64,000 bases of DNA from Kiritimatiellia bacterium (lineage in GTDB: Bacteria > Verrucomicrobiota > Kiritimatiellia > RFP12 > UBA1067): assembly GCA_050949565.1 (NCBI GenBank), contig JBMNFY010000017.1:1792001-1856000 (forward strand), given 5' to 3'. The stretch's first letter is position 1, and each line of letters opens with the position of its first letter. Positions 3,843-60,590 of the stretch are shown here, in pieces. Position numbers and translations under genes: made by a program. The notes under the pieces were generated by a model that was not told where the DNA came from, did no database searches, and worked only from the letters and a program-made list of their open reading frames with translations.

Positions 3843-3856
3843 GTGGAGTTGACAGG

Positions 3857-3914
3857 TAGGATTTAGGAGTTAAGAATTAGGAAAACTCCTAAATCCTAAA
3901 TCCCAAATCCTAAA
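3857..3914. repeat. Inverted short-tandem-repeat hairpin between convergent genes
   Basis: taggatttaggagtt pairs perfectly with aactcctaaatccta, followed by more aaatcc(c/t) units. Confidence 0.75.
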
Positions 3915-4662
3915 TGCTTTCCGCGCGTAGCGCGGAAGCGGAATCGCTGTCCAGATAGAGCGCGCATCCCTGGTGGCGTTGCAGGATCGAGGCCGGACAG
4001 AGCGGCGTGATTGGCCCTTCCACGGCCCCTTTGACGGCTGCGGCCTTGCGCGCATCCGGCACGGTGCAGACGATGCGGTGGCTCTTCATGATCTGCGGGA
4101 TGGACATCGAGATCGCCTGTGTGGGCACCTCATCCAGCGTCGCGAACCAGCCCTCGCCCACCTGTTGGCGGCGGCAGGCTTCGTCCAGTGTTACAACCAG
4201 ATACGCCGCATCGGTCTCGAAATCGGCCGGCGGGTCATTGAAGGCCAGATGGCCGTTCTCGCCGATTCCTATGCACGCGACATCAATCGGCGCGGCGTCG
4301 ACCAACTGTCTCAGTCGCTCGCACTCCGCCTCAAGATCCGCCGCCTCGCCATCGACCTCGACAAAGGCACGCAACGGGGTCGGTAGCGCGCCGACAAGGC
4401 GCTCACGCAGATAAGCGCGGAAACTGGCGCGATGCGTAACCGGCAGTCCCGCGTACTCATCCAAATGAAACGCCGTGACCTGCGACCAATCGATATCAGG
4501 CGTCTGCGTCAATGCTTGCAGGAAGCCGAATTGACTGGCACCGGTTGCCACGATTAAGCGCGCCTCACCGCGCTCGGCCAGTGCCTGTCTGAGCACTGCC
4601 GCCGCATCGGCGGCGGCAGCGCGTGCCATCTCTTCAGAACTCTTTAAAACATGAACTCTCAT
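3910..4662 (-). CDS. nagB: Glucosamine-6-phosphate deaminase
   Basis: ATGASQ, FHLDEY and [13 protein letters not shown] motifs. Confidence 0.85.
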
Positions 4663-5199: not shown

Positions 5200-5660
5200 G
5201 AAGTCCCACGAGTACTTCCGAGTACTTCCAAGGTACCAAGTTCCTGATGGGCTGTCACTCCGCAATTGTTTTCTCTCACAGAGGGGGCGCGCTGTGCGCG
5301 AAGTAGGATTTAGGATTTAGGAGTTGCACTGCTCGGTTTTTTAATCCACAGATGGCACAACAGATTACACAGATTTTTTTGGGGGAGGGCTGCGGTCCTG
5401 CCACAGCGCCAGATGCCAGGCATTCATCAGGCGGCGTGTCACTCCGCCCACGGGCAAGATGCCCGTGCCACACCTGCGGGATCGGCAGCGCGGCTCGTGG
5501 GGACACTCGCCCTCCAGGCTTCGCGCCTTCGCGTGAAACAACCGAGCAGCGCTTTTACTCTCACGGTTGCGAGCCACTGCGTGGTCGCAACAAAGAGGTT
5601 GACTCGCGACCAGCGCCCAAATCCCAAATCTAAAATCACAAATCTAAAATTCTCCCCCCC
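5200..5660. repeat. Composite intergenic repeat patch
   Basis: ggattta repeats (5304) and inverted aaatc repeats (5618-5650) enclose REP-like CACGGGCAAGATGCCCGTGCCAC (5449-5471), GCGGCTCGTGGGGACACTCGCCCTCC (5490-5515) and the ttgcgagccactgcgtggtcgcaa hairpin. Confidence 0.8.
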
Positions 5661-6739: not shown

Positions 6740-6910
6740 ATAGGCAGTAAGGCAGTGAGGTTGTAAGGTTGATCAGACGGATCAAAACAATGCCCTAAAA
6801 AACCTCCGCGCCTCCGTGCACCGCGCGGCAGCGTGGCACCCCTTACAGTCTTAACACCTGAACAACTCCTAACTCCTAACTCCTAAATCCTAAATCCTAA
6901 CTCCTAAATG
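6740..6910. repeat. Short-tandem-repeat patch
   Basis: aggcagt(a/g) repeats, ccttacagtcttaacacc and (aactcct/aaatcct)n; related modules recur at 8271-8915 and 14975-15015. Confidence 0.7.
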
Positions 6911-6920
6911 CGCTACCGCG

Positions 6921-8102: not shown

Positions 8103-8140
8103 GGTGCGATGATACCCAATGCGGGCAGGGCCCGCAACCC

Positions 8141-8232
8141 AAGTTCATTAGTTAATTAGTGCATTAGTGCATTAGTTCATTAGTGCATGAGTTCATTAGT
8201 GCATGAGTTCATTAGTGCATGAGTTCATGAGT
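8141..8232. repeat. Short tandem repeat (agttcattagtgcatg)n
   Basis: About 11 imperfect 8-bp units (agttcatt / agtgcatt / agtgcatg). Confidence 0.85.
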
Positions 8233-8270
8233 TTGTCTGGGGATGTGCTACTGCGCTTCACAGTGCCCCC

Positions 8271-8915
8271 AAAAAACCTCTGTGCCCCTGTGCCTCTGTG
8301 GTGAGAAAATAGGCAGTGAGGTGTTAAGGCTGTGAGGCTGTGAGGTAACTCAGAACGCCGAACGTTGAACCCTTGAACCAGCGACGAAGTCGCGATTGAA
8401 CTTCTTGAACCCTTGAACCAACTCCTAACTCCTAAAAAACCTCTGTGCCCCTGGCCTCTGTGGTGAGAAAATAGGCAGTGAGGTGTTAAGGCTGTAAGGC
8501 TGTGAGGTAACTCAGAACGCCGAACGTTGAACCCTTGAACCAGCGACGAAGTCGCGATTGAACTTCTTGAACCCTTGAACCAACTCCTAACTCCTAAAAA
8601 ACCTCTGTGCCCCTGTGCCTCTGTGGTGAGAATATAGGCAGTGAGGTGTTAAGGCTGTGAGGCTGTGAGGTAACTCAGAACGCCGAACGTTGAACCCTTG
8701 AACCAGCGACGAAGTCGCGATTGAACTTCTTGAACCCTTGAACCAACTCCTAACTCCTAAAAAACCTCTGTGCCCCTGGCCTCTGTGGTGAGAATATAGG
8801 CAGTGAGGTGTTAAGGCTGTAAGGCTGTGAGGTAACTCAGAACGCAGAACGTCGAACTCAGAACGTTGAACCAGCGACAAAGTCGCGATTGAACCTTTGA
8901 ACCTCTTGAACCCCT
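8271..8915. repeat. Tandem array of four 162-163 bp units
   Basis: Unit starts (aaaaaacctctgtgcccctg) at 8271, 8434, 8596 and 8759; near-identical, with unit 4 diverging at its end. Confidence 0.95.
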
Positions 8916-10283: not shown

Positions 10284-10445
10284 GCGCGTTTTTTGCGTTT
10301 TACGTTTTTTTCAATTGATCGGCACTGGGAGATATGCCGAGGTCATGCGTTTCTATAGAGAGTAACGGTGAATGGCGAAGAGTGAATAACAGGGTATGGC
10401 CGTGGGGATTTACCCTAAAAAGAACAGTTGAACCTTCAACTCTCT

Positions 10446-10598
10446 TTGGTTTCTGGTTTCAAGGTTTCATGGTTTCAAGGTTTCTGGTTTCTGGTTTCAA
10501 GGTTTCAAGGTTTCAAGGTTTCTGGTTTCTGGTTTCAAGGTTTCAAGGTTTCTGGTTTCTGGTTTCTGGTTTCATGGTTTCATGGTTTCATGGTTTCA
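10446..10598. repeat. Short tandem repeat (ggtttct / ggtttcaa / ggtttcat)n
   Basis: About 20 units of 7-8 bp. Confidence 0.9.
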
Positions 10599-10781
10599 TC
10601 CAAATCGGGATCGGGATCGCTATCGGGATCGAAATCGACTGTTGCGCCCACGCAGTGGCTCGCAGCGGCAAGTGTAATGATGGCGGCGATACCGATCCCG
10701 ATACCGATAGCGATATCGATGGTGGCGCAATGGAACCTTGAAACGCATGACCTTCGCACTCCCCTGTCACTAACCGATTGC
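10599..10781. mobile_element. Dispersed ~180-bp element, copy 1 (copy 2 at 21766-21936)
   Basis: atcggg and cccgat inverted arms around a conserved core; ends in cccctgtcactaaccgatt. Confidence 0.75.
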
Positions 10782-14960: not shown

Positions 14961-15096
14961 ACGCGCGCCACCGCGATTTAGGAGTTAGGAGTTAGGATTT
15001 AGGAGTTAGGAGTTGGCACTCACGTCTCATGTCCCTTGTCTCGTGTCGCCCGGCGGCGTAAACGCCGCCTACAGAACTTGAAAGGAAACATAAAGC

Positions 15097-18861: not shown

Positions 18862-18883
18862 GAGATAATTTAGGATTTGGGAT

Positions 18884-21670
18884 TTGGGATTTAGGATTTG
18901 GGATTTGGGATTTTCGGCTCGCGAAGCACTGGGAGGGACGAGCGTCTGCTCGTCCGGCAGCGGTCACGCCGTCACTGCCGATCCTGCGGGTACTGCGGGT
19001 GAGGGCGGTGTGGCACGGGCATCTTGCCCGTGGGCGCGGACGGCGACGCGTGCGCTGCTCACTCTCCTGCTGACGGCTGCTGGTCATGTAACGGCGACCA
19101 CCGATCCGGTCACCGTCACCTTTCTGCAGGGCTACGATCCCGATCTGCCGGAAAGCCCTATTACGCGCCAGATTCTCTCTCTCGCACGCGAGGAGCCGCG
19201 CCTCAATCCTCAGAAGTGGGGCGGATTGAGTCTGCCCGGTGCCGGTGGCCGTGCCCCGTTCATGCTTTCGCTCGCTGGTGGCACTGCGCCGGACATCTAC
19301 TTCTGCTGGTTCCACATCATCCGACACGACATCGAGCAGGGCTTCTGTTACCCACTCAACGAGTGGCTCGGTGACGATACCGATGGCGACGGCCAGATCA
19401 GCGACGCCGAGGCGCGCTGGCCCGGCTGGCGGCACGTGCCGCCGCTCTGGCGTCAGGTCGCCACGCGCGACGGCAAGGTCTACGGCCTGCCGATGGCCGG
19501 TATCTGGTATTACGGCATCGTCTACCGCAAAGACTTGGTGCGGCAAGCTGGGGTCGATCCCGAATACATCCCCGCAACCTGGGACGAGTTTTTCCGCTGG
19601 TGCCAGCGTCTCACCTTCCCGGGCAAGCAAGTGGCTGGTGCCAAGGTGCAGCGCGGTCAACGCGCCTTCGGTCTTGAGAACCGGCCGTGGAGCTGGTTGC
19701 CGTGGATGCAGGCTGCGGGCGGCTCGCCGATCGTCTCCGTGCGCATCTCGCCTACCACGGGACGCAGTCACCGTTTCGCCATGGAGGAGACACGCTTCGT
19801 CGTGTCCGAAACCGGCGAAGACCTATCGGAAGTAGCAGCCGTCTGGCAGGCGAATTTCGACTCGCCCGAAGCCATCGAAGCGGCAGCCTTCACTCACCGT
19901 TTGGCCTGGGCCCCCTGGTTACGCGACCCGCAGAGCGGCGAACCGGTTGATCTCACGCCCGACGATTTGGCCGCCGGGCGCGTGACATTGGCCGACGGAC
20001 GCGAGGTCGCCTTTGCCGAAAGCGACGTGATCAAGGGCGTGGCGCGCGCGTTGCCGCGCCTGACGCAAGACCTGCCGCAGCTCTTCGCGCAAGGCGAGGT
20101 GGTGGCGCTCTTCTCCGGTGCCGAGTTGGTCGAGCAGCTCACGCGCGACCTCAACCTGCCGCCCGACATGGTCGGCATCATGCCCTTTCCCGCCGCGCGG
20201 CCGGGAATGAAGCCGGTCTTTCAGGCACACAAGCACTTCTACAGCATGACCGAGGGCGTGGGACGCCGCTCCAAAGCCGAGCGCGATCTGGTGTGGCGCT
20301 GCATCGAACAACTCGCCAGCGAGGCGGTCAACGACGAGACGGTCAAACAGAAGGTACTGGAAGGCCACGCGCGCTGGTGTACGCCTGCCGACCTCGAACG
20401 TCTGGGCTTTACCGAGTATCTGGACGAAGTACCGCCCGGCATCCGGCGCAATTATGAGCGTATCGCCAACGGTGAGATTCTGGCGCGCACCGAACCCTTC
20501 GCCGGCTTCTGGCAGGCGGTGTCGGACCTGATCGACCGCCGCCTGCTCGGCGTGCTGCTGGCCGACACCGGCGAGAACTTCGACTACGCCGCCGCGCTGC
20601 GGAGCATCAATGACGACGCCAACCGCGGACTGATGTTCCGCGCACCCGAGGAGGTGCTCGCGCGCCAACGTCCGCTCGCCCGCGTACTCCTCGGCATCGT
20701 TGCGATCACCGCGCTCATCTGTTTCGGCTTGGCCTTCAAGCGGAAGTCCGGCGTTGCCGGGACTGCCGGGGCACCCGTCTCCCGTCTCCCGTTCCCCGCT
20801 TCCCTGTCTCCGTGGCTGATGCTCGCGCCCGCGCTGCTCTCGATTGCACTCTGGAGTTACTATCCCCTGATCCGCGGCGCGGTCATGGCTTTTCAGGAGT
20901 ACCGCATCGTGGGCGAGACCACATGGGCCGGGCTCGACAATTTCATTCTTGTAGCCACCGACAAGGGCTTCTGGGCCGCGTGGGGACGCACCTTTCAGTA
21001 TGTGGGTTTGACGTTGCTGCTGGGCTTTCTCACGCCGGTGCTGTTGGCGTTGATGCTGTCCGAAATCCCGCGCGGCAAAATCTTTTACCGCACGCTCTAC
21101 TTCCTGCCGCACCTCACCAGCGCACTGGTGATCGCGTTGCTCTGGAAGCTGATGTACGACCCGACCGAGAATGGCATGTTGAATCAGATCCTCGGGTTTT
21201 TCGGCGTGGCGCGGCAGACCTGGTTGCAGGATCCCTCACTGGCGATGCTCTGCTGCATCTTGCCGGGTGTGTGGGCCGGTGCGGGCATGGCCAGTCTGAT
21301 CTACGTGGCGGCGTTGCAGGCGCTGCCGCCCGACTACTATGAGGCGGCGGCCATCGACGGCGCCGGCATTCTGAGCCGCTTCCGCCACATCACCTATCCG
21401 CAACTGCTACCGTTGATGGTGATCAACTTCGTCGGCGCGTTCATCGCCGCATTCCAAGGGATGGGCAGCATCTTCCTGCTGACCTTCGGTGGTCCCGGCG
21501 ATGCCACCAACGTGCTGAGTCTCGCGATCTGGAAAGAGGCCTACAACAACCTGCGCTTCAGTACCGCCACCACGATGGCGTGGTTCCTCGGTGTCGCACT
21601 GATCGGCTTCACCTACCTCCAGATCCGCATCCTGCGCAAGGTCGAGTTCCGGCGCGTCAGCACCAACTGA
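18884..21670 (+). CDS. Fused sugar ABC solute-binding protein and permease (true start uncertain)
   Basis: SBP motifs AGGTAPDI, YGLP, IVYRKDL and PATWDE; permease EAA motif YYEAAAIDGAG. Confidence 0.85.
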   Translation: MGFRIWDLGFSAREALGGTSVCSSGSGHAVTADPAGTAGEGGVARASCPWARTATRALLTLLLTAAGHVTATTDPVTVTFLQGYDPDLPESPITRQILSLAREEPRLNPQKWGGLSLPGAGGRAPFMLSLAGGTAPDIYFCWFHIIRHDIEQGFCYPLNEWLGDDTDGDGQISDAEARWPGWRHVPPLWRQVATRDGKVYGLPMAGIWYYGIVYRKDLVRQAGVDPEYIPATWDEFFRWCQRLTFPGKQVAGAKVQRGQRAFGLENRPWSWLPWMQAAGGSPIVSVRISPTTGRSHRFAMEETRFVVSETGEDLSEVAAVWQANFDSPEAIEAAAFTHRLAWAPWLRDPQSGEPVDLTPDDLAAGRVTLADGREVAFAESDVIKGVARALPRLTQDLPQLFAQGEVVALFSGAELVEQLTRDLNLPPDMVGIMPFPAARPGMKPVFQAHKHFYSMTEGVGRRSKAERDLVWRCIEQLASEAVNDETVKQKVLEGHARWCTPADLERLGFTEYLDEVPPGIRRNYERIANGEILARTEPFAGFWQAVSDLIDRRLLGVLLADTGENFDYAAALRSINDDANRGLMFRAPEEVLARQRPLARVLLGIVAITALICFGLAFKRKSGVAGTAGAPVSRLPFPASLSPWLMLAPALLSIALWSYYPLIRGAVMAFQEYRIVGETTWAGLDNFILVATDKGFWAAWGRTFQYVGLTLLLGFLTPVLLALMLSEIPRGKIFYRTLYFLPHLTSALVIALLWKLMYDPTENGMLNQILGFFGVARQTWLQDPSLAMLCCILPGVWAGAGMASLIYVAALQALPPDYYEAAAIDGAGILSRFRHITYPQLLPLMVINFVGAFIAAFQGMGSIFLLTFGGPGDATNVLSLAIWKEAYNNLRFSTATTMAWFLGVALIGFTYLQIRILRKVEFRRVSTN

Positions 21671-35396: not shown

Positions 35397-36983
35397 CTAA
35401 CGCTCTTTCTCGCCCCACGAAGTATAGCCATTTTTGAAGAGCCACTCCGCAGCGCCAACGTGACCTTGTCGCGCGGCCTGTTTAAATAACTCGACCGCGC
35501 GGACATGGCTCATCTCGACTCCGCGCCCATATTCGTACAGGGTTGCCAGATTGTAAGCTGCGCTGGCGGCACCTTGATCAGCAGCGGCCTTGAACCACTT
35601 TGCGGCGAGGGCATGATCTTGAGGCACGCCCTCGCCCCGCAGGTAAAGCATGCCGAGATTGTTTTGCGCGGCGGGGACTCCAGCTTCGGCAGCGCGGCGG
35701 TAATGCTGTTCAGCCTGCGCGTAGTCCTTCGGTACTACGATCCCGCGGTAGTGAAAAGTGCCGAGCGCATGAATCGCGCGCGGGTTCGCCTGCTCCGCCG
35801 CCTTCGTGTACCAGTTGAAGGCGCGCTCATGGTCTTGTGGCACGCCGCGTCCCTCCTCATACATCTGCCCGATGAAAAACTGCGCCATCGCATGGCGCTT
35901 TTCGGCGGCTCTGGCGAACCAAGTGAGCGCCCTGCGGTTGTCTTGTTTGACACCGTCACCATCGCGGTAGAGCAGGCCAATGTTAACCTGTGCTTCGGTG
36001 TGCCCTTGGTTTGCGGCGCGCGCGAACCACAAGCCAGCCTCGCGCGGATTACGCGGTACGCCGCGCCCCCGGGCGCAGACAAAGCCATAGTTGAACTGGC
36101 CATCGGCATTGCCGGACTCCGCCGAGCGACGATACCAATTGGCCGCAGCGATTAAATCTTTTTCGGTTCCGCGTCCCTCCTGATAGAGCCAGCCGAGGTT
36201 GTTCATGGCGCTCGAATGCCCCTTCTCGGCGGCGCGCGTGTAGAGCACGAACGCCATGCCCTCATCCTTGGGCACGCCGCGTCCCTGCGCATAGAGCGCG
36301 GCCAGATTGTACTCGCCGTTGCGGTCTCCTTGCAGCGCAGCCTGCCGGAAATATTCGCCGGCCTTATCATCATCTTGCGGAACCCCCTGGCCGCGATAGT
36401 AGATAAGTCCCAGTGCGTTTTGCGCTAAGGCCTGGCCCTGTGCCGCAGCCTGCTGGTACCAGTCGCGTGCCTCTTCCGGCTGATTCAGATTAAGATCGCA
36501 GTCCAGCCCTACCAGATATTGAGCCAACGCGTTACGTTCCCGGGCGTGCGCGCGTATCAATGGCCGTCCCTCATTCAGATAACGCTCCCGCTGTTCGGCC
36601 GATAACGCGCAGAGCGGCTCTTGTGCGGCATGCACCGCCAGTAGAAAACGGAAAAACGTCTGGCCGGCATCGGCCATCTCCCGGACCTTTGCCACCGCCA
36701 CCAAAAAATCATCGGTGCTGCCCGCCGTTCGTGCGTTCACGAATCGCTCGACCGCGCCCCGGACCTCCTCCATCGCGGCCGCAGTCTCCTCGTCGGCGCG
36801 GACCACAGAAAACGTGAACACAAGCGCCGCGCTGGCGACCTTAAGAAGCGCGAGTCGCAAAGGGCGGCATGACCGCCGCCGGGCAAGCAGACGCTTGCTC
36901 CTCCCGATGTTCCGCAAGTAATGAAACCTGGAAATCCTAAATCCTGAATCCCAAATCCTAAATCCCAAAATCCTTCGCCTCAT
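35397..36983 (-). CDS. Sel1-repeat exported protein
   Basis: About 10 repeats of the AQxxLGxxYxxGxGV / AAxQG type. Confidence 0.9.
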   Translation of the reverse strand: MRRRILGFRIWDSGFRISRFHYLRNIGRSKRLLARRRSCRPLRLALLKVASAALVFTFSVVRADEETAAAMEEVRGAVERFVNARTAGSTDDFLVAVAKVREMADAGQTFFRFLLAVHAAQEPLCALSAEQRERYLNEGRPLIRAHARERNALAQYLVGLDCDLNLNQPEEARDWYQQAAAQGQALAQNALGLIYYRGQGVPQDDDKAGEYFRQAALQGDRNGEYNLAALYAQGRGVPKDEGMAFVLYTRAAEKGHSSAMNNLGWLYQEGRGTEKDLIAAANWYRRSAESGNADGQFNYGFVCARGRGVPRNPREAGLWFARAANQGHTEAQVNIGLLYRDGDGVKQDNRRALTWFARAAEKRHAMAQFFIGQMYEEGRGVPQDHERAFNWYTKAAEQANPRAIHALGTFHYRGIVVPKDYAQAEQHYRRAAEAGVPAAQNNLGMLYLRGEGVPQDHALAAKWFKAAADQGAASAAYNLATLYEYGRGVEMSHVRAVELFKQAARQGHVGAAEWLFKNGYTSWGEKER

Positions 36984-52159: not shown

Positions 52160-54901
52160 TTAACCAAGCCCCCTGCATCCCGGCCCGGACAGTACGCTCC
52201 TGCCGCCGGTCTGGGGGGTGACTTGAATCTGTGTGCTGATCCGCTCTTTCAAGGCGGAGACGTGCGAAATGACGCCGATCAGCTTGCCGTCATGCTGGAG
52301 ACTCGCGAGGGTTTCCAGCGCGGTGTCGAGCGCCTCTTCGTCCAACGTGCCGAACCCTTCGTCCAGGAACAGTGAATCCACGCGGACATTCTGGCTTGCC
52401 ATGTGGGACAAGCCCAACGCCAGCGCGAGACTGACGATAAAGCTCTCCCCGCCAGAAAGGTTTTTCGTGGTGCGGATCTCTCCGGCCTGATAGTTGTCGA
52501 CTACATTGAGTTCCAAGGGCGACGTATCGTCCCGCGTCAGCAAGTAACGGTCGGTCATGTTCTGCAACTGACGGTTGGCGTGACCAATCATCATGTCGAA
52601 GGTCAACCCTTGCGCAAAATTGCGGTACTTTTTGCCGTCGGCAGAGCCGATCAGTTCGTGCAGATTCTCCCACCTGCGGCACTCGTTTTTCTGAGCTTCG
52701 ATCGCGGCCTTTTTGGTCTCCATCCGCTCTTTGGCAACCGTGTTCTCGTTCAGTTTGTGCTTGAGACCGGCAATCGTATCCCGCATCTCTTTCAGGGACT
52801 CCTCCTGCTCTTTGAATCGCGGTTCAAGCGCTTCCAGCGGCTCGTCGGTGAGCTTAAGGGCCAGCTCCTTGGCCAGATGCGCCTCCCGATCCTTCTGTCG
52901 CGCTTTTAACTCGGTTTGACGGTCGTCCAAGCCTTTGGCCGTGTCCGTCAACTCGGCTCTGCGTTCAGCGGAAAGCCTGGCCGCCAAGAACTGCTCTTCA
53001 TCTGCAAACCCCACCGGCGCGAACGCTGCGGAAAATTCAGTTTCAAGTTTTTTAAGTTCCGGTTCTTGGTGCTCGATGCGCCGTTTAAGCGATGCGGCAC
53101 GATCCTTCGCGGTGTTCCACTTTTGCTGGTGTTCATGGTGCCGTTCTCTGGCCTGCTTCTCGGCACTCTCGGCAGCGGCAACCGCTTGGTTTAAGCGGCG
53201 CTCCTCATCGTCCGGCTGTTTGTCGCCGTACAGCGACTGACGCTCCGCACTCGCGGCGGCGAGTCCCTTTTTCAAGGTCTCCAGTTGCTCCAACTTTTCG
53301 GCCAGAGCGGTGCCTTGGGTTTCGATGACCGCATCCAGCCGTTTGACCTCGCTATCGATGTCGGCGATCTGCCTCTCGATCTCTGCCTTCCTGCCAATCA
53401 GATCCTCGACTTTGTCGATCAGGCGAGACAACTCATCAATCCGTTGCTCGGTTTCATCGGGGAGCGGCACATTGCCTGCGGCGAAGGGGTGTTCGGTCGC
53501 GCCGCAGAGCGGACAGGGCTTGCCGTCTTGCAGCTTGGCGCGATGCGCTTCAAGCTCTGCGATCCGAGTCAGGAGCGCCATTTCGCGCAGCAGGGCGTCC
53601 TTCTCGGCACGGTACTCGCGCAACAAAGTGGTCGGCTTTTCATCCTGCGCATGTTCCTTGAGGAAGGCGTCCACGCCTTGCAACGCCTCGCACGCCTTGG
53701 ATCGTTTGTCCAGTTCCGCAAGCCGGGCTTTTTTGTCTGTGTCGATCTTGGCTGTATCTCTTTTGCAACCCGCTTCGCTATCCGCGACAGCTTTTTGCTG
53801 GTCGCCAAGCTTTTGATCCAGTGCGCGGACTTTCTGCAAGGTCGGCGCGGCCGCTTTCAGCGCTTCTTTTGCTTGGACGGTTTGCTGCTCAGCCGCTTGC
53901 AAGGTTTCGGCCTGTTCCTTGGCAGAGATTTCCAGTCCGGGCAGTGCCGCCTCTTCGGTTTTCAGGGCGGCTTGGTCAGCCGACTGCTGTTTGCGGGCGG
54001 CGGTGAGTGTGGCGTATGCGCCGTCCAGCGCGGCGGCACTCAAGGCGCGTCCTAGCTTTTCGCGATCCGGCTTGAACGCTTCGATTTCGCCCTGCAGCTT
54101 GTCTGCTTCGTCGGCCAGACTGACAATCTCCTTTTTCAGTCCGTCGATGAGGGTGAGCCAGGCGATGGCCTTCCCGGTGGCGGCTGACGTGGCGGCAAGC
54201 TCTGCCTCTTCCTTGCGCTTGTTTTCGAGTGTTTGCTCCAGCGCTTGCTCCTGCTCCGGTTCAAGAATCACGATGCCGGCCGTTTCAGCGCGGAGCAGGT
54301 TCAGCTTCTCCTGCTCTTCGCGCTGGCGCTCATGGACGCGGATGGATATCCGGCTGTAGATCTCCGTGCCCGTGATCTGCTCCAGAATCGGTGCCCGATC
54401 ATCGGGTGCTGCCTGCAGGAATGCGGCGAAACCGCCCTGCGCCAGTAGCATGGAGCGGGTGAAGCGGTCAAAGTCCATGCCGGTGGCCGTCGCGATCTGG
54501 TCGGCAACGCCTTTGATTTTGGATTCAAAAATCTCGCCGGAGTCGGCATCGGCAATTTCGTGCTTCGGGGCTTGGAGTTCGCCGTCCGGCTTCTTGCGCG
54601 CCCGGTGCTGGCTCCAGTGGCAGCGGTAGCGCTTGGACTGGGCTTCGAAGGTCACCTCGGCAAAACATTCGCCAGTCTGGCGGGACATGACTTCGTTGCC
54701 GCTCCGATTGACCCTGTCCAGGCGCGGCGTGCGTCCGTAAAGCGCGAGGCAAATGGCATCGAGGATGGTGGTCTTGCCCGATCCGGTGGGGCCGGTGATG
54801 GCGAAGATGCCGTCAGACACATAGGCCGGATGCGTCAGGTCGATTTCCCATTCGCCGACCAGCGAGTTCAGATTCTTGAAGCGTATTTGGCGGATCCTCA
54901 T
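52160..54901 (-). CDS. sbcC: SbcC (Rad50-like) ATPase
   Basis: GPTGSGKT, Q-loop LAQG, zinc hook CPLCG, LSGGE and FLDEGFG motifs. Confidence 0.93.
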   Translation of the reverse strand: MRIRQIRFKNLNSLVGEWEIDLTHPAYVSDGIFAITGPTGSGKTTILDAICLALYGRTPRLDRVNRSGNEVMSRQTGECFAEVTFEAQSKRYRCHWSQHRARKKPDGELQAPKHEIADADSGEIFESKIKGVADQIATATGMDFDRFTRSMLLAQGGFAAFLQAAPDDRAPILEQITGTEIYSRISIRVHERQREEQEKLNLLRAETAGIVILEPEQEQALEQTLENKRKEEAELAATSAATGKAIAWLTLIDGLKKEIVSLADEADKLQGEIEAFKPDREKLGRALSAAALDGAYATLTAARKQQSADQAALKTEEAALPGLEISAKEQAETLQAAEQQTVQAKEALKAAAPTLQKVRALDQKLGDQQKAVADSEAGCKRDTAKIDTDKKARLAELDKRSKACEALQGVDAFLKEHAQDEKPTTLLREYRAEKDALLREMALLTRIAELEAHRAKLQDGKPCPLCGATEHPFAAGNVPLPDETEQRIDELSRLIDKVEDLIGRKAEIERQIADIDSEVKRLDAVIETQGTALAEKLEQLETLKKGLAAASAERQSLYGDKQPDDEERRLNQAVAAAESAEKQARERHHEHQQKWNTAKDRAASLKRRIEHQEPELKKLETEFSAAFAPVGFADEEQFLAARLSAERRAELTDTAKGLDDRQTELKARQKDREAHLAKELALKLTDEPLEALEPRFKEQEESLKEMRDTIAGLKHKLNENTVAKERMETKKAAIEAQKNECRRWENLHELIGSADGKKYRNFAQGLTFDMMIGHANRQLQNMTDRYLLTRDDTSPLELNVVDNYQAGEIRTTKNLSGGESFIVSLALALGLSHMASQNVRVDSLFLDEGFGTLDEEALDTALETLASLQHDGKLIGVISHVSALKERISTQIQVTPQTGGRSVLSGPGCRGLG

Positions 54902-54929
54902 CGCCAGCCCCTCCGCATAGCCGGGACAT

Positions 54930-55200
54930 AAAAATTGAGCGTTGAGCGTTGAGCGTTGAAAGTTTTAACGCAGAGACGCAGAGACGCAGAGATTTTTATG
55001 GGATGGCATCGTGACCGCCGCCGAAGGGAGGGACGAGCGTCTGCTCGTCCGCGGGCAAGCAGACGCTTGCCCCTCCCGGTGCTTCGCACTGAAATCTGAG
55101 AAACTATCCTTCCGCACGGCGGAAGGCGGCTCGTGGGGACACTCGCCCTCCAATGCCGCGCCTCAATCATGTCAATCATGTCAATCATGTCAAAAAAAAC
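54930..55200. repeat. Composite repeat patch between sbcD and sbcC
   Basis: (ttgagcg)3, (acgcagag)3, a GGAG-type REP dyad at 55026-55077, a REP at 55126-55152 and (caatcatgt)3. Confidence 0.85.
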
Positions 55201-55215
55201 GCATCCCGTCTTTCA

Positions 55216-56577
55216 TCAAAGCGCGTCGTCCTCGTCGAGCGACGCGACCGCTTCTTGATAAGTCCGCAGTAGCTCGGGCCGCTGTTCGTCAGGCACGTTG
55301 TGAGCGGCGAGGCAGCGCTCGAATACATCGTTTACGGTCAGATCATCGAGCGTTTCCTCTGTGTGGAGCCGTCCCAGCACGCGGTCGATGATACGGTTGT
55401 TTTTGACGCGGAGAATCTCTATTTGGGTATCGGCTGTCGCAGTCTCCAAACGTTCGCGCAGGTCACCGATGACTTCTTCGCCCTCGTAGACGACTTCGAG
55501 CCAGCTTGAAGCGTCCGTTGCCGACAACTCAAGGATGCGGCGCTCGATGTCGTCCCACTCACCTTTGACGCGCTCAAGCTTTTGAAACATCGGTGCGTCG
55601 ATTAGGCTGATGTGAGCTTTTGGCCGATTATCGAGGCCTTTGCAATCCCCCTTGCGTGCAGGTGTGGCACGGGCATCTTGCCCGTGTTTCATGGGCGGGA
55701 CGCCCATGCCACGAGGGGTTTTGCAAGGGTCTCTGGCGTCAGCCTTGTCTGCGTTCCTCTGTGGATAAAAATCGACCAGCACCACACTCTTCTGCTGTTT
55801 GGCCTCGCCGAATCCCATAGGCAGGGGAGAGCCGCTATATCGCATGGTTTCGGTGCTACTCACCATTTGCGGGATATGGAGGTGGCCGAGCGCCAGATAA
55901 TCAAAACTGGCGGGAAAACTTTGGGCAGTCACATGCGCCAGCGAACCCACATAGAGTTCGCGCACGCCATCGCCGTCGACCGTTTGTCCGCCTGCGGTAA
56001 ACAGATGCCCCATGCCGACGACGGGGATATCGCCCCCGAACTCCGCGCGTTTTTGTTCGGCCAGGGCAGTGACGGCGGCGTAGTGTGCGCGGATGCCGTC
56101 AGTCAATTTCCGCTCCTTGTCCTCGACACTCTCGCCGGCTTCCGCCGTGCGGATATCCCGGTCGCGGAGATAGGGCACGGCGCAGACGATCAGTTCCGGC
56201 GCGTCCTGCGCATTGCGGAGCACCAGCACCTCGTCTTCCAGGCAGTCAGAAGCATTGCCGACCACATGGACATTGAGGGCTTTGAGCAACTCTTTGGGGG
56301 CATTGAGGAACGACGGCGAATCATGGTTGCCCGCGATAACGACAACATGTCGGCAGTGCGAGGCAACCACCCGGCACAGAAAGCGGTAGTAGAGTTCCTG
56401 GGCGCGGTTGCTCGGTGTACTGGTGTCAAAGACATCCCCCGCCACCAGCAGCGCGTCGATCTCACGCTCCCGGATCGTCTCCGTCAGCCAAGCTAGAAAC
56501 GCCTCAAACTCCTCATAGCGTTTTCTGCCATAAAGCGTGCGGCCGAGATGCCAGTCGGATGTGTGGAGTATTTTCAC
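55216..56577 (-). CDS. sbcD: SbcD nuclease with in-frame repeat insertion
   Basis: HTSDWHLG, AGDVFD, AGNHD, LGHLH and YSGSP motifs; GTG start. Confidence 0.93.
   Translation of the reverse strand: MKILHTSDWHLGRTLYGRKRYEEFEAFLAWLTETIREREIDALLVAGDVFDTSTPSNRAQELYYRFLCRVVASHCRHVVVIAGNHDSPSFLNAPKELLKALNVHVVGNASDCLEDEVLVLRNAQDAPELIVCAVPYLRDRDIRTAEAGESVEDKERKLTDGIRAHYAAVTALAEQKRAEFGGDIPVVGMGHLFTAGGQTVDGDGVRELYVGSLAHVTAQSFPASFDYLALGHLHIPQMVSSTETMRYSGSPLPMGFGEAKQQKSVVLVDFYPQRNADKADARDPCKTPRGMGVPPMKHGQDARATPARKGDCKGLDNRPKAHISLIDAPMFQKLERVKGEWDDIERRILELSATDASSWLEVVYEGEEVIGDLRERLETATADTQIEILRVKNNRIIDRVLGRLHTEETLDDLTVNDVFERCLAAHNVPDEQRPELLRTYQEAVASLDEDDAL
55633..55733 (-). mobile_element. In-frame inverted-repeat element, copy in sbcD
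   Basis: gaggcctttgcaa...ttgcaagggtctc ends around a REP dyad; about 89/97 identical to 59371-59467. Confidence 0.9.
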
Positions 56578-56880
56578 CGGGCATTCTACTTTTGCTCGCA
56601 GGTCGTTTTTTCGCCCCGGGCATGGTGATAGGCCTTGCAGGCTTTGCAGTCTCCGTGCCGCGGGCACCCCGGCCACGTGCAGGGGCAATCAGTTTTGATC
56701 GTTTTCTCGCTCATATCGGTTCTCCTAGTAGTTTTGCCGGTGGTGGATTTAGTGGACGTTGTGGACGCTGTTGACTTGGTGGACGCTTCAGAATCTTGTC
56801 CACGCTATCCACCCCTCTGGCTTCTCTTTGCCGCCTGTCGCCCCCAGACGTCGGTACCTGTCGCCCTCGATCACGTGTAC

Positions 56881-57240
56881 TCACACCGCCGAGGCGACGA
56901 TGCGGTTGTGTTCGTCGAGCCGCACGATTTTGGGGTGGTGGTCCGCGCACTCGTTCGCGTCAAGCTGGCACCAGACCATGACGATCAGGCGGTCGCCGAG
57001 GGTGCCCTTGTGGGCGGTCGCACCGTTCAGGCACGCCACGCCGCTGCCGCGCGGCCCTTTGATCGCGTAAGTCTCGAAACGTTCGCCGTTTTCCAGATTG
57101 GCGACCAGCAGCTTTTCGTAATTCAGGATACCGACGGCGTCCATCAAATCTTCATCGATCGTCAGGCTGCCTTCGTACTCCTTGTCGGCCTGTGTGACGC
57201 GCAAGTGGTGCAGTTTGGCTTTGAGTAAAGTGCAGAGCAT
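56881..57240 (-). CDS. panD: Aspartate 1-decarboxylase
   Basis: KAKLH, YEGSLTID, NGERFETY and LNGA motifs. Confidence 0.95.
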   Translation of the reverse strand: MLCTLLKAKLHHLRVTQADKEYEGSLTIDEDLMDAVGILNYEKLLVANLENGERFETYAIKGPRGSGVACLNGATAHKGTLGDRLIVMVWCQLDANECADHHPKIVRLDEHNRIVASAV

Positions 57241-57373
57241 AAAAATCCTTTTGGAAACGTAGTTACAGCATACGGCGAAGCCGCTTGCGATGCAAGAAGA
57301 GAGATTGTTGCAAAACACACGCCAACCCCGTATTCTATTGCCGTTGCGTAAAACCGATTCTTAGGAGAGAGAG

Positions 57374-58060
57374 ATGGCATTGAATGTGGTGAGAGAGATT
57401 GACGGGTGCGTGGCCGTGCGCCATGTGTTGATGAGTGTGTCGGACAAGAGTGGCCTGGAGACGTTTGTGCCCGGACTGATCGCCGCCTGTCCAGAGGTGA
57501 AAATCTATTCGACCGGCGGTACCTACACCGCCGTGCAGAAACTGCTCGGCCCTGAACGCGCCGCGCAACATTTGGTGGCAGTCTCGGACTATACCGGACA
57601 GCCGGAGATGCAGGGCGGACTGGTCAAAACCCTCGACTTCAAGATCTATCTGGGCTTGCTCAGCGAGACCTACAACGCGGATCACCAGCGCGATCTGACC
57701 CGTACCGATGCGGTTGCGATCGATATGGTCGTGGTGAACCTCTATCCCTTCCAGCAGACGGTCGCGCGCGAGGGCGTGACCCCAGAGGAGGCGCGCACGA
57801 ATATCGATATCGGCGGCCCCTGCATGGTACGCGCCTCGGCCAAGAACTACCTGCGTGTGGCTTCGGTGACCGATCCTGCGGACTACAGCGCGTTGCTCGA
57901 TGAGCTGACCGCCAACGGCGGTACGCTGGGCTTTGCCACGCGCCTCGCTCTGATGAAAAAAGCCTTTGCCCATACCGCGCAGTATGACACCGCGATTGCC
58001 GCCTTCTTTGCCGATGTTACGGAGGAGCAAGCGCGGAAGACGTATGACATGCACGCCTAA
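57374..58060 (+). CDS. IMP cyclohydrolase domain of PurH, stand-alone
   Basis: SVSDK, STGGT, VKTL, VVNLYPF and IDIGGP motifs; no AICAR transformylase domain. Confidence 0.85.
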   Translation: MALNVVREIDGCVAVRHVLMSVSDKSGLETFVPGLIAACPEVKIYSTGGTYTAVQKLLGPERAAQHLVAVSDYTGQPEMQGGLVKTLDFKIYLGLLSETYNADHQRDLTRTDAVAIDMVVVNLYPFQQTVAREGVTPEEARTNIDIGGPCMVRASAKNYLRVASVTDPADYSALLDELTANGGTLGFATRLALMKKAFAHTAQYDTAIAAFFADVTEEQARKTYDMHA

Positions 58061-58063
58061 ACC

Positions 58064-58936
58064 ATGATCGATCTGCACATCCATTCCACGCACTCGGATG
58101 GCTCCGACACGCCCGCACGCTTGGTTGAACTCGGGCGGCGGGCTGGCTTGCATGCGATGGCTCTGACCGATCACGATACGATGGCCGGCACTGAGGATTT
58201 TCTGGCCGCCTGCCGTGCGCACGGCATGACCGGCATCTCCGGCATTGAAATCAGCGTGGATGTCGATGGTGGCCCTGGTTCGCTGCACATCCTCGGTTAC
58301 GGCATGGATCCGCACCACCCGGCGATACATAAGAATCTCGGGTGGGTGCTTGACGGGCGCGCCTGGCGCAATGAGCGGATTGTCGAAAAGCTCAACGAAC
58401 TGGGCTTGGAACTGAATCTGGACGAGGTTCGCGCTTACGCCGGCGAGGATGTCGTCGCACGCCCCCATATCGCGCGGGCGCTGATCGGGCGCGGCTATGT
58501 CTCGACTGTGGCGGAGGCGTTCGACAAGTATCTCGCCAAGGGGCGTCCCGCGTACATCGACCGCTACCGCCTCAACCCGGAAGAGGGCATCAGCATGATC
58601 CGCGAGACCGGCGGCATCGCCGTCATCGCGCATCCCTTCACATGGGAGAATGACGACGCGCGTCTGGAGGCGGGCTTGCGCACGCTTCAGTCGTTCGGCC
58701 TCAACGGCATCGAGGCGATTTACTCTGAGTATACGCCGGAACAGACCGTGACGCTGCTACGCCTCGCCAAGCGCCTCGGGCTGTTGGTCACCGGCGGCTC
58801 CGATTACCACGGTCTGGCCAAACCCGACATCGCGCTTGGTCGCGGCTTCGGCGCACTCAGTGTGCCGGACACCTGCCTGCTTCCGCTGCTGGCCGCGCTT
58901 GGCCCCGATAACCCTTGGGTGGTCACGCCCTCTTAA
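58064..58936 (+). CDS. PHP domain phosphoesterase
   Basis: DLHIHSTHSDG, LTDHD, AHP and GGSDYHG motifs. Confidence 0.92.
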   Translation: MIDLHIHSTHSDGSDTPARLVELGRRAGLHAMALTDHDTMAGTEDFLAACRAHGMTGISGIEISVDVDGGPGSLHILGYGMDPHHPAIHKNLGWVLDGRAWRNERIVEKLNELGLELNLDEVRAYAGEDVVARPHIARALIGRGYVSTVAEAFDKYLAKGRPAYIDRYRLNPEEGISMIRETGGIAVIAHPFTWENDDARLEAGLRTLQSFGLNGIEAIYSEYTPEQTVTLLRLAKRLGLLVTGGSDYHGLAKPDIALGRGFGALSVPDTCLLPLLAALGPDNPWVVTPS

Positions 58937-58971
58937 CCCCTCACCCCCTTAACCCCTTACAGCCTCCCCCC

Positions 58972-59964
58972 ATGGACTGGACTGATACATTAGCCGAATT
59001 GATCCGACGCACCACGAGCGACCTGCCCGCCGATGCGGAGGCCGCGCTGTGCCGCGCTGTCGATGTGGAGTCGCCCGACTCGCAGGCCGCGCTGATCCTG
59101 CGCGCGCTTGTGGAGAACACCGCGCTTGCGCGCCAACAATCTACGCCGCTCTGCCAAGACACCGGCACGCTCACCTTTTTCTGGGAGGTGCCGCCCGGCA
59201 CCGATACCGCCGCGCTCGAACAAGCCGCGCGCAACGCGGTGGCGCGCGCCACCCACAACGGCTGGCTGCGCCGCAACACGATCGACACCTTGACGGGACG
59301 CTCGGTCGACAGCAATGTCGCCGAAGGTTGTCCGGTGTGCCACTTCGAGCAACGGGCGGCGGATGGAGAAGGCTCTTGCAAAACCCCTCGTAGCATGGGC
59401 GTCCCGCCCATGAAACACGGGCAAGATGCCCGTGCCACACCTGTACGCAAGGGGTTTTGCAAGAGCCCCGAAGGTCATGCGGCGGGAATCGAAGTCTGGC
59501 TGCTGCAGAAAGGCGGCGGCAGCGAGAACATGAGCCGCCAGTTCAGTCTGCCCGACGAAACGCTCGGAGCCGGACGCGACCTCGAAGGGGTGCGGCGTTG
59601 CCTGCTGCACGCGGTCTGGCAAACGCAGGGCTTCGGCTGTGCGCCCGGCGTGCTGGGCGTCTGCATCGGTGCCGACCGCGCCGAAGGGTTTCTCGTCGCC
59701 AAGCGCCAGTTGTTGCGTTCGCTTGACGATGCCGCGCCTGAACCTGAGTTGGCCGCACTTGAGCGGCGCGTACTGGAGGAGGCCAACGCATTGGGCATCG
59801 GTCCGATGGGCATGGGCGGCACCACCACGCTGCTGGGCGTCAAAATCGCTGCGCGTACCCGTCTGCCCGCCTCTTACTTTGTCACTGTGGCTTATCTCTG
59901 CTGGGCTTGCCGCCGGCGCGGCCTGCGCGTATCGTCCGACGGTTCGCTCCACTGGCTCAACTGA
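58972..59964 (+). CDS. Fumarate/tartrate hydratase alpha subunit with in-frame insertion
   Basis: PLCQDTG, KGGGSEN, GIGPMGMGG and CWACR motifs. Confidence 0.9.
   Translation: MDWTDTLAELIRRTTSDLPADAEAALCRAVDVESPDSQAALILRALVENTALARQQSTPLCQDTGTLTFFWEVPPGTDTAALEQAARNAVARATHNGWLRRNTIDTLTGRSVDSNVAEGCPVCHFEQRAADGEGSCKTPRSMGVPPMKHGQDARATPVRKGFCKSPEGHAAGIEVWLLQKGGGSENMSRQFSLPDETLGAGRDLEGVRRCLLHAVWQTQGFGCAPGVLGVCIGADRAEGFLVAKRQLLRSLDDAAPEPELAALERRVLEEANALGIGPMGMGGTTTLLGVKIAARTRLPASYFVTVAYLCWACRRRGLRVSSDGSLHWLN
59371..59467 (+). mobile_element. In-frame inverted-repeat element, copy in the hydratase gene
   Basis: Perfect 18-bp inverted repeats ggctcttgcaaaacccct / aggggttttgcaagagcc. Confidence 0.9.
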
Positions 59965-59990
59965 TTCACTCCCTCATTTCACATTCACTT

Positions 59991-60590
59991 ATGATCACGC
60001 TTCACCATCCTTTCACCGAAACTGCTGTGCGTGCGTTGTGCGCCGGAGAGGCTGTGCGCGTGTCGGGTCGCGTCTGCACGGGGCGCGACCGTCTGCACAA
60101 GCATCTGGCCGAAGGCGGCGCGTGTCCGGCCGACCTGCGCGACGGCGCACTCTTTCACTGCGGCCCGGTGGTCGTCCCGCTTTCGCCCGATCCTGCGCAA
60201 CCGTCAGATGGGCGCGGCGGTTGGCGCGTAGTGGCGGCCGGCCCCACCACCTCGATACGCGAAGAACCCTACATGGCGCGGGTGATCGAGCGGTTCGGCG
60301 TGCGTGTCGTGATCGGCAAGGGCGGCATGGGCGAAGCCACGCGCGCGGCATGTGCGCGGTTCGGTTGCGTCTACCTGCAGGCGGTGGGCGGTGCCGCCGC
60401 CTTGATCGCGCAACGCATCAAGCGCGTGGCGCAGGTGCATTTCCTTGAGGAGTTCGGTGCCACCGAAGCGCTCTGGGAACTGGATATCGAGGGCTTGGAG
60501 GCCGTGGTCGGGATTGATGCCAGCGGGCGCAGCCTATACGATGAAGTACGTGACGCCTCGGCTATGCGCTTGCGTCGGCTGCTGGGGTAG
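59991..60590 (+). CDS. Fumarate/tartrate hydratase beta subunit
   Basis: GRDRLH, HCGP, AGPTTS and GKGG motifs. Confidence 0.9.
   Translation: MITLHHPFTETAVRALCAGEAVRVSGRVCTGRDRLHKHLAEGGACPADLRDGALFHCGPVVVPLSPDPAQPSDGRGGWRVVAAGPTTSIREEPYMARVIERFGVRVVIGKGGMGEATRAACARFGCVYLQAVGGAAALIAQRIKRVAQVHFLEEFGATEALWELDIEGLEAVVGIDASGRSLYDEVRDASAMRLRRLLG

Follow-up and report, generated by a model that had tools for sequence, protein, structure and literature searches.

In-frame insertion of small palindromic elements into bacterial genes is already known. In-frame gene fusions of IS-derived bacterial MITEs are described as not unusual in passages of Minnick (2024, PMC10969869) and Delihas (2011, PMC3184786), and Di Nocera et al. 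(2013, PMC3733652) report the GTAG-19 REP of Opitutus terrae, a PVC bacterium, in frame within unrelated proteins, repair genes included. In the summaries given by PMC10969869 and PMC3733652, Rickettsia palindromic elements are repeats of 100 to 150 bp that also lie in frame in unrelated enzymes. For in-frame palindromic inserts elsewhere, the mover and the original sites are usually not known. Here, we analyzed a stretch of 64,000 nucleotides from an uncultured Kiritimatiellia bacterium (the window; assembly GCA_050949565.1, contig JBMNFY010000017.1, positions 1,792,001 to 1,856,000), in which one such element occupies both sbcD and the gene for the fumarate hydratase alpha subunit. What is visible in this genome (G000) and its relatives is the likely mobilizing transposon together with empty insertion sites. 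Our search, which left most subscription papers and ISfinder outside its scope, found no literature on this element, on a REP dimer within IS1182 ends, or on such repeats in Kiritimatiellia.

Results

A palindromic element lies in frame in two unrelated enzymes

The original prediction described two 97-bp copies with about 8 mismatches, which lie within two open reading frames and share their orientation and frame with respect to the host. We counted 8 mismatches (9 over 102 bp) between the copies, which are mutually inverted and form the longest inverted repeat of the window, and both host ORFs are open with the copies oriented and framed as described. The perfect 18-bp inverted repeat proposed for the hydratase copy is also present (59371-59388 / 59450-59467). 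However, a consensus built from 85 copies sets the element at 101 bp rather than 97 bp, with perfect 15-bp terminal inverted repeats. The features of the locus are as follows.

55216 to 56577, minus strand: sbcD, 453 aa, with the insert at about residues 282-316; it lies in front of sbcC (52160-54901)
55633 to 55733, minus strand: MITE in sbcD, translated in element frame +2; its target duplication has decayed
58972 to 59964, plus strand: alpha subunit of a class I (Fe-S) fumarate hydratase, 330 aa, with the insert at about residues 132-166
59365 to 59368, plus strand: left target duplication, GGAG, where the empty alleles have GAAG (a single change)
59369 to 59469, plus strand: MITE in the hydratase alpha gene, element frame +2; the empty alleles lack exactly 105 nt
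59369 to 59383, plus strand: left terminal inverted repeat with one change from the 15-bp consensus, which matches the resident IS ends exactly
59390 to 59438, plus strand: REP dimer core made of two GC-rich palindromes with 3 nt between them; its translations are GTAG-19-like
59455 to 59469, minus strand: right terminal inverted repeat, which departs from the consensus at one base
59470 to 59473, plus strand: right target duplication (GAAG)
59988 to 60590, plus strand: hydratase beta subunit, intact partner gene, TIGR00723 above cut-off

Both copies fold far better than shuffled sequences (z of -10.1 and -5.8, with 0 of 200 shuffles as good), and an Rfam scan of the window gave no match at either insert, its sole match being a tRNA elsewhere.

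Both host genes keep open frames and catalytic motifs

The hosts are well defined by family models, with SbcD above the cut-off of TIGR00619 and the hydratase, the alpha subunit of a class I fumarate/tartrate hydratase, above that of TIGR00722. Like the beta subunit, sbcC is intact. The insert-bearing hydratase retains the Fe-S cysteines C61, C223, and C310, together with D63 and KGGGS, and all filled alleles seen have open frames and motifs, in line with the original description of intact catalytic motifs. This hydratase is the sole fumarase found in the genome, which is 92% complete, such that a second one could be missing; a search for FumC returned two weak matches far below the cut-off.

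The sbcD product is 35 residues longer than its homologue P0002 between shared anchors. In structure models, both inserts appear as low-confidence loops at β-hairpin turns that relatives expand with other repeats: residues 274-317 of SbcD (whole model moderately confident, mean pLDDT 65.7) and 132-169 of the hydratase have pLDDT below 50 and lie between two strands. The same SbcD turn is lengthened by at least 14 residues in 10 of 120 homologues besides P0001, and by up to 22 residues, while the same fumarase loop is lengthened in 40 of 104 other scorable homologues, several by unrelated simple repeats. The MITE segment itself was absent from distant orthologues, with none among the 119 other SbcD hits outside the element-bearing cluster P0001 and none among the 119 other fumarase hits outside the element-bearing cluster P0121 (15 fumarase hits unparsed).

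An assembly artefact was ruled out because both inserts are also present in another genome, G004, and all four insert junctions are spanned by contigs of DNA run X3, a possible source sample. Contigs from RNA libraries, which may hold DNA, also cross junctions (three of four in X15, one in X16, and one in X17). No contig joined across either insert without it was found in these three libraries, a null result weakened by the fact that contigs drop rare forms. The host genes have dN/dS values of 0.09-0.17. Since recombination with empty alleles affects the flanks (of 62 variable sites, 12 are shared polymorphisms and 3 are fixed differences), these values are weaker evidence for the hosts and may partly record selection on insert-free donors.

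Insertion duplicates 4 bp and adds exactly 35 codons

No clear target duplication had been noted originally. On the contrary, a 4-bp duplication exists: it is exact at 35 of the 81 stand-alone copies in the genome, with about 0.3 expected by chance, and appears as GGAG/GAAG at the hydratase; 8 of the 81 have a 5-bp duplication. The comparison with orthologues brought out the original state, as three fumarase alleles that are 97-98% identical lack exactly the 105 nt and have a single GAAG at the target site; their sequence rules out GGAG as the original target. Elsewhere, the sites of two G000 copies align to G004 with a clean gap of 105 nt, five G004 copies have empty sites in G000 at which the flanks overlap by 4 bp, and a GH42-like gene of G002 is shorter by 35 residues. 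Copies are gained and lost between close genomes.

An insertion adds 101 + 4 = 105 nt, or 35 codons, and 34 of the 44 copies with a duplication of at least 4 bp add a multiple of three. The consensus is stop-free in five of six frames; a shuffle test reached this in 80 of 5,000 trials, which is a hint at most, given that shuffling destroys the palindrome and the test was post hoc.

Most copies lie outside genes

All 81 stand-alone copies are full-length, lack a transposase, and stop sharply at the terminal repeats; 123 further matches comprise the core only. Six of the 81 lie in frame within genes and 75 outside, compared with a genome that is 82% coding (coding fraction and in-gene counts both from our own gene caller). 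With 75 of 81 copies outside genes, sbcD and the hydratase gene are no special targets. The six coding copies are all stop-free and keep the frame, and they use three different element frames. The predicted loop of about 33-35 residues stands, with its length now fixed at 35, while the common peptide does not: three frames across six genes rule out a shared functional peptide.

Among 53 paralogues, the REP core differs by 2.3% pairwise, while the arms differ by 19%. Compensatory evolution of the outer stem is unsupported, as paralogues showed 135 broken pairs, 50 G-U pairs, and 10 compensated pairs.

A resident IS carries the whole unit at its right end

A resident IS of 1650 bp, present in 12 copies, has ends identical to the MITE terminal repeats (perfect over 15 bp), and its right end holds a whole MITE-like unit. 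Target duplications at the nine copies scored measured 4, 5, 0, 5, 4, 3, 7, 0, and 4 bp, and one further copy lies at a contig end. The transposase has DUF772 and DDE_Tnp_1 domains and, along 97-99% of its length, shares 40-45% identity with nine plasmid records, eight of them annotated as IS1182-family and one with near-identical ends. We call the IS no more than IS1182-like because the transposase scores 90.5 bits against the NCBIfam IS1182 model, below its curated cut-off of 270; models of the IS5 family, to which the original prediction had likened the ends through IS1106, score lower still, also below cut-off.

Ends of this IS group in G000, G035, and G055 consist of a terminal repeat, a hairpin, and, further in, a degenerate copy of that repeat in inverted orientation, with three different hairpins in the three genomes. 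Among the copies examined, only those of G000 carry the REP dimer at the right end. The transposase is present in three of seven other pattern-positive genomes and was not found in the MITE-rich genomes G002 and G004 (56% and 78% complete).

Orthologous copies are less diverged than their surroundings

Across 80 whole-contig stretches that cover 1.48 of 3.5 Mb, copies orthologous between G000 and G004 differ at 32 of 1951 positions (1.6%). Divergence is 2.05% at second codon positions, 6.9% in the remaining intergenic DNA, and 11.6% at fourfold sites. An estimate of 0.8% from 40 G004 loci was dropped, as these loci had been chosen by similarity to the element and were biased. Five coding inserts show 3 differences in 505 nt, while 4 of 47 fourfold sites within 30 nt of them differ. 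We looked for a broad low-diversity valley around the inserts at fourfold sites and did not find it; a short one is present in intergenic flanks within 60 nt (2.2-2.4% vs 5.5-7.5% in control gaps) and in 5-nt flanks (1/180). Of ordinary intergenic windows of 101 nt, 48% show at most two differences. A neutral loop alone does not account for 3 differences in 505 nt across the coding inserts.

Discussion

Our findings support the original view of a REP-carrying MITE, given the terminal repeats, target duplication, and REP dimer core, and we consider it probable that this non-autonomous miniature transposon derives from the end module of the IS1182-like element. The GTAG-19-like REP dimer that serves as the right-end hairpin in this lineage makes the end module a 101-102-bp unit with two usable ends, although the direction could be either, the IS having given rise to the MITE or having picked it up. 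Identical ends and similar duplication lengths suggest that the enzyme of the IS mobilizes the unit in trans, producing the 4-bp duplication and mobility seen at empty sites. As a gain of 105 nt leaves the reading frame intact and only one of the six consensus frames has a stop, most hits in genes would be expected to yield a 35-residue insert. Selection may then clear nearly all coding hits, leaving survivors in already variable loops or linkers; depletion in genes and loop positions are observed, and selection seems a better guess than target choice. The peptide would presumably be translated as a disordered, near-neutral loop, with each enzyme gaining exactly 35 residues and both probably still working. 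Our best reading is therefore that the inserts are tolerated selfish insertions in variable surface loops rather than a functional peptide.

We considered whether the copies are instead kept by selection on nucleotides, as an mRNA hairpin (stability, processing, or operon tuning) or a protein-binding site, both within genes and between them, with the peptide as a by-product. We consider this rather unlikely. In its favor, 56 of the 81 copies lie between co-directed genes, at a median of 7.5 nt past the stop codon and 34.5 nt ahead of the next start, the core is conserved among paralogues, and orthologous copies are nearly invariant even where nearby fourfold sites vary. On the other hand, the arms have decayed freely among paralogues, there is no orientation bias (32 vs 24), copies come and go between close genomes, and the site just past a stop codon is also the least harmful place to insert. 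The 60-nt intergenic flanks are less diverged as well, as linkage would give, and nearly half of ordinary windows show two differences at most. The very stable hairpin and its conservation could also suit removal or bypass of the insert in RNA, by hairpin excision or ribosome bypass, yielding normal-length proteins; we give this hardly any credence, because all six coding copies are stop-free and in frame, which would be needless if they were removed, and neither an Rfam match nor (weakly) an insert-skipping contig was found.

HUH/Y1 transposases are not known to duplicate their targets, and it is very improbable that a RAYT (Y1) transposase spread the REP dimer with the IS-like ends being incidental. 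The GTAG-19-like core, the core-only matches, and 13 RAYT-like matches in the genome, one above cut-off and another (below cut-off, with a stop inside) directly after tandem core arrays, speak for such spread, which may still apply to core-only copies; the sharp ends, 4-bp duplications, and clean empty sites of full-length copies are a DDE footprint. SbcCD cuts hairpins, and if one or both host genes were crippled, loss of sbcD would relax this nuclease and favor the spread of palindromes. We consider this improbable: although full-length SbcD was found in only one of six congeners with this query, suggesting that SbcD is probably dispensable, and its model is only moderately confident, all filled alleles seen keep frames and motifs, the same turn is longer in other SbcD proteins, the fumarase is the sole one found, and both partner genes are intact.

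We also offer a broader scenario, which we hold only tentatively and think rather unlikely as a whole. The hairpin-bearing ends of this IS group could serve as templates from which MITEs arise, with foreign palindromes taking the place of the hairpin. The variant that spread would have been selected, at the level of the element, because its 105 nt and five frames free of stops do no harm in genes. A REP that is normally moved by Y1 enzymes would thereby be handed to a DDE transposase. While the surrounding genome is overwritten, copies might then be held near unchanged, either by RNA-hairpin selection or because they block recombination.

The constancy of orthologous copies in an otherwise mosaic genome either signals a function in the RNA or marks the clonal frame. 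With a candidate transposase, the duplication, a core enzyme whose filled and empty alleles are 97-98% identical, and six hosts in three frames together at hand, it can be tested directly whether inserts of this kind do harm, are of use, or have no effect.

Comparison with known systems

The closest relatives of the resident IS are ISUnCu17-like plasmid elements of the IS1182 family, which share 40-45% transposase identity over nearly the whole length, terminal repeats differing at 1-2 of 15 bases, and a duplication of mostly 4-5 bp; the resident IS differs in its score below the IS1182 cut-off and in the REP dimer at its right end. As far as they are characterized in passages of PMC10969869 and PMC3184786, IS-derived MITEs resemble this one in being under 500 bp, transposase-less, and mostly intergenic, with terminal inverted repeats, a target duplication, a stem-loop, and IS-shared ends. 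This MITE differs in being GC-rich rather than AT-rich, in its REP dimer core, in the presence of the whole unit at an autonomous IS's own end, and in an element plus duplication of exactly 35 codons with five open frames. Its core translates to the same short peptides as GTAG-19 of O. terrae, for example Oter_1283, Oter_3001, and Oter_3506 (PMC3733652, supplement 3), a match at the peptide level. In PMC3733652, however, GTAG-19 occurs as RAYT-linked REPs, single or dimeric and without further ends, that mostly add 7-30 residues, whereas in this element IS terminal repeats surround the dimer and a 4-bp duplication is present. The likeness to Rickettsia palindromic elements, which the original prediction had drawn, holds at the level of how they work, with an in-frame palindromic insert in unrelated proteins and six such genes here. 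According to the summaries in PMC10969869 and PMC3733652, nearly half of the Rickettsia elements lie in genes, compared with 6 of 81 here, and they are CGTC-tagged REPs without a dedicated transposase, whereas the element described here uses several frames and has a resident candidate DDE transposase.

Anatomy and mobility of the element

The original prediction placed two 97-bp copies of one palindromic repeat inside unrelated enzyme genes. Both are present in the window, which is G000:C17:1792001-1856000, with 8 mismatches over 97 bp, and each lies within an open reading frame of an identifiable gene:

55216-56577, minus strand, sbcD, holding one MITE copy
58972-59964, plus strand, class I hydratase (fumarase) alpha subunit gene, holding the other

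Long hairpins were predicted for both copies, well past those of shuffled sequences, and an Rfam search gave no match for the repeat. Using a profile built from 85 copies, we found 275 non-overlapping matches in the genome, of which 93 are full-length (81 stand-alone copies and 12 right ends of a resident IS). The consensus is 101 bp long with 15-bp terminal inverted repeats that are perfect in the consensus. Named homologues, and named records bearing the repeat, point to Kiritimatiellia and nearby PVC lineages.

Target duplication had been thought unclear, but an exact 4-bp duplication flanks 35 of the 81 stand-alone copies and a 5-bp duplication another 8, with no target consensus among their insertion sites. 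Empty sites confirm this footprint when the source genome (G000) is compared with G004, a second genome carrying both inserts: two G000 copies face a clean 105-nt gap in G004, and five G004 copies correspond to a 4-bp overlap in G000. In an unbiased sample of 32 full-length G004 copies, 16 are shared with G000, 2 are empty there, 3 are otherwise rearranged, 10 have flanks that are not both placeable and 1 lies at an edge. Since 101 bp plus a 4-bp duplication makes 105 nt, insertion adds 35 codons; among the 44 copies whose duplication is at least 4 bp, 34 bring a net gain divisible by three, and stop codons are absent from five of the six consensus frames. Together, these findings demonstrate a mobile element with defined anatomy, duplication and frame arithmetic, and the proposed REP-carrying MITE is a MITE on every feature testable here.

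The MITE shares its ends with the resident IS, a 1650-bp element in 12 copies (at least 98.4% for 11, 91.7% for one) whose target duplications are mostly 4-5 bp. At its right end the IS carries a complete MITE-like unit of 102 bp, the inner repeat of which has decayed. Its transposase carries DUF772 and DDE_Tnp_1 domains, scores best against the IS1182 model, yet below cut-off, and shows 40-45% identity to plasmid proteins that carry an IS1182-family annotation; one such plasmid element has nearly the same ends. Related ISs in genomes G035 and G055 are built to the same plan but carry other hairpins, and the IS ends L253, L362, L361 and L371 have a common terminal repeat and different right-end subterminal hairpins. 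Among 120 other genomes of the order, the transposase occurs in 8, the exact end pattern in 7 and both in 3; related genomes do not count as independent here, and ISs in many copies frequently fail to assemble. We infer that the IS transposase moves the MITE.

The insert occupies loops in two host enzymes

Aligning orthologs, as had been suggested, recovered empty fumarase alleles: four proteins with 97-98% identity to the insert-bearing one have 295 aa, exactly 35 fewer, and three fumarase loci show an empty site with a single GAAG. The closest empty SbcD homologue (P0002) is likewise 35 residues shorter between shared anchors, as counted from the protein alignment. AlphaFold2 places the insert in a low-confidence segment between two beta strands in both fumarase (132-169; model mean pLDDT 86) and SbcD (274-317; model mean pLDDT 65.7), and the fumarase model matches structure 7XKY with a TM of 0.90 by target. 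The cluster cysteines, catalytic aspartate and KGXGS motif described in the M. jannaschii enzyme (bioRxiv 10.1101/2022.09.03.506457) are all retained, as noted earlier for the hydratase. These results demonstrate the loop position and the intact motifs in what is the sole fumarase gene detected in the genome (92% complete). Residue 297 is an arginine, invariant in 106/106 aligned homologues; because its M. jannaschii counterpart is apparently His257, the substrate of this hydratase clade is uncertain.

Of the 104 other fumarase homologues that could be scored (from a set of 120, of which 15 were not parsed), 40 have a longer loop at the insert position, as do 10 of 120 SbcD homologues besides the element-bearing P0001. 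Both loops were permissive before insertion. The fumarase loop of relatives (L016, L017, L018, L019, L034; P0126-P0221) was lengthened independently, by up to 42 extra residues and often through translated heptamer tandem repeats, and is a repeat sink within a core enzyme. The closest database relatives of SbcD (sbcCD region, window 52160-56577) are labelled proteobacterial and other lineages, and full-length SbcD was found in 1 of 6 congeners; sbcD was possibly acquired horizontally.

Contigs of DNA run X3, possibly from the source sample, span all four insert junctions, and among the RNA libraries, contigs of X15 span three junctions and those of X16 and X17 one each. We do not take the latter as expression because the libraries may contain DNA. 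None of the contigs from these four runs joins directly across an insert. The peptide is probably translated and tolerated in its host enzymes.

Genomic distribution and other hosts

Our own gene caller gave 3030 genes (82% coding). The coding versus non-coding tally that had been proposed places 6 of the 81 stand-alone copies within genes and 56 between co-directed neighbours; another 5 have divergent and 1 has convergent genes on either side, and 13 are remote from any called gene. The scarcity within genes suggests selection. Of the six coding copies, three are read in frame +2, two in -0 and one in -1, and they therefore encode no common peptide. The insert is absent from orthologues of the other four hosts of full-length in-frame copies:

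G000:C4:128441-130321, double hydrolase, lengthened by 61 residues through more than one element
G000:C8:231677-234535, FtsX/MacB permease
G000:C8:274358-278359, restriction-modification protein
G000:C17:347246-350476, GH42-like protein

Partial in-frame elements lie at:

G000:C17:1265668-1265741, second FtsX permease
G000:C17:994344-994418, transglutaminase-like protein
G000:C17:735844-736004, exonuclease/endonuclease/phosphatase protein

In P0251, P0249, P0256, P0258 and P0260 the element forms predicted N- or C-terminal extensions, for example in a tRNA-guanine transglycosylase-family protein (PF01702); the N-terminal ones may be start-calling errors. Within the window, core-only copies lie at 5446, 19007 and 52008, and a 228-aa gene (57374-58060) matches PurH models in their N-terminal part alone. 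Window intergenic DNA holds other small repeat families and many heptamer-nonamer tandem tracts. Repeat tracts lie at:

3845-3918
6864-6911
8134-8912
10425-10612
14967-15028
18868-18934
36932-36979
54945-54995
55148-55193

Orthologous copies are nearly invariant

Over 1.48 Mb of G004 compared with G000, element positions diverge by 1.6%, which is less than second codon positions (2.05%), intergenic DNA (6.9%) and fourfold sites (11.6%). Across the five coding inserts present in both genomes, 3 of 505 nt differ. Measured per kilobase, fourfold divergence has two modes, about 4% and 21%, and a 5th percentile of 1.5%; such a mosaic indicates heavy recombination.

Selection on the hairpin might keep orthologous copies alike, and it gains from the fact that fourfold sites right beside the inserts are still diverged; we consider it a possible, if less probable, explanation. 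The arms of paralogous copies diverge by 19%, and element arms show little compensation. Filled and empty fumarase alleles have 12 polymorphisms in common, and two of their three fixed differences lie within 71 nt of the insert. Given the little compensation, the mosaic genome and the common polymorphisms, we lean towards a neutral account in which the copies mark the recent clonal frame, flanks are replaced from element-free relatives and the insert acts as a barrier. Such flank replacement makes the low host dN/dS (0.09-0.17) unclean evidence of post-insertion function.

Relation to known repeat families

The core, a REP dimer, probably had a separate past as a REP, since the genome contains RAYT-like genes and 123 core-only matches. 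A single open frame at G000:C10:220516-222747 (L013) joins MmeI-type methyltransferase pieces, in-frame tandem core arrays and the beginning of a RAYT-like domain. The observation is real, and neither this element nor a REP dimer enclosed by IS1182-like ends is described in the literature covered; in-frame MITE and REP fusions are already published (PMC10969869, PMC3184786, PMC3733652). The parallel drawn with Rickettsia palindromic elements stands only at the level of how the element works. The core translations match those listed in PMC3733652 for the GTAG-19 REP family, which lies in frame in Opitutus terrae proteins.
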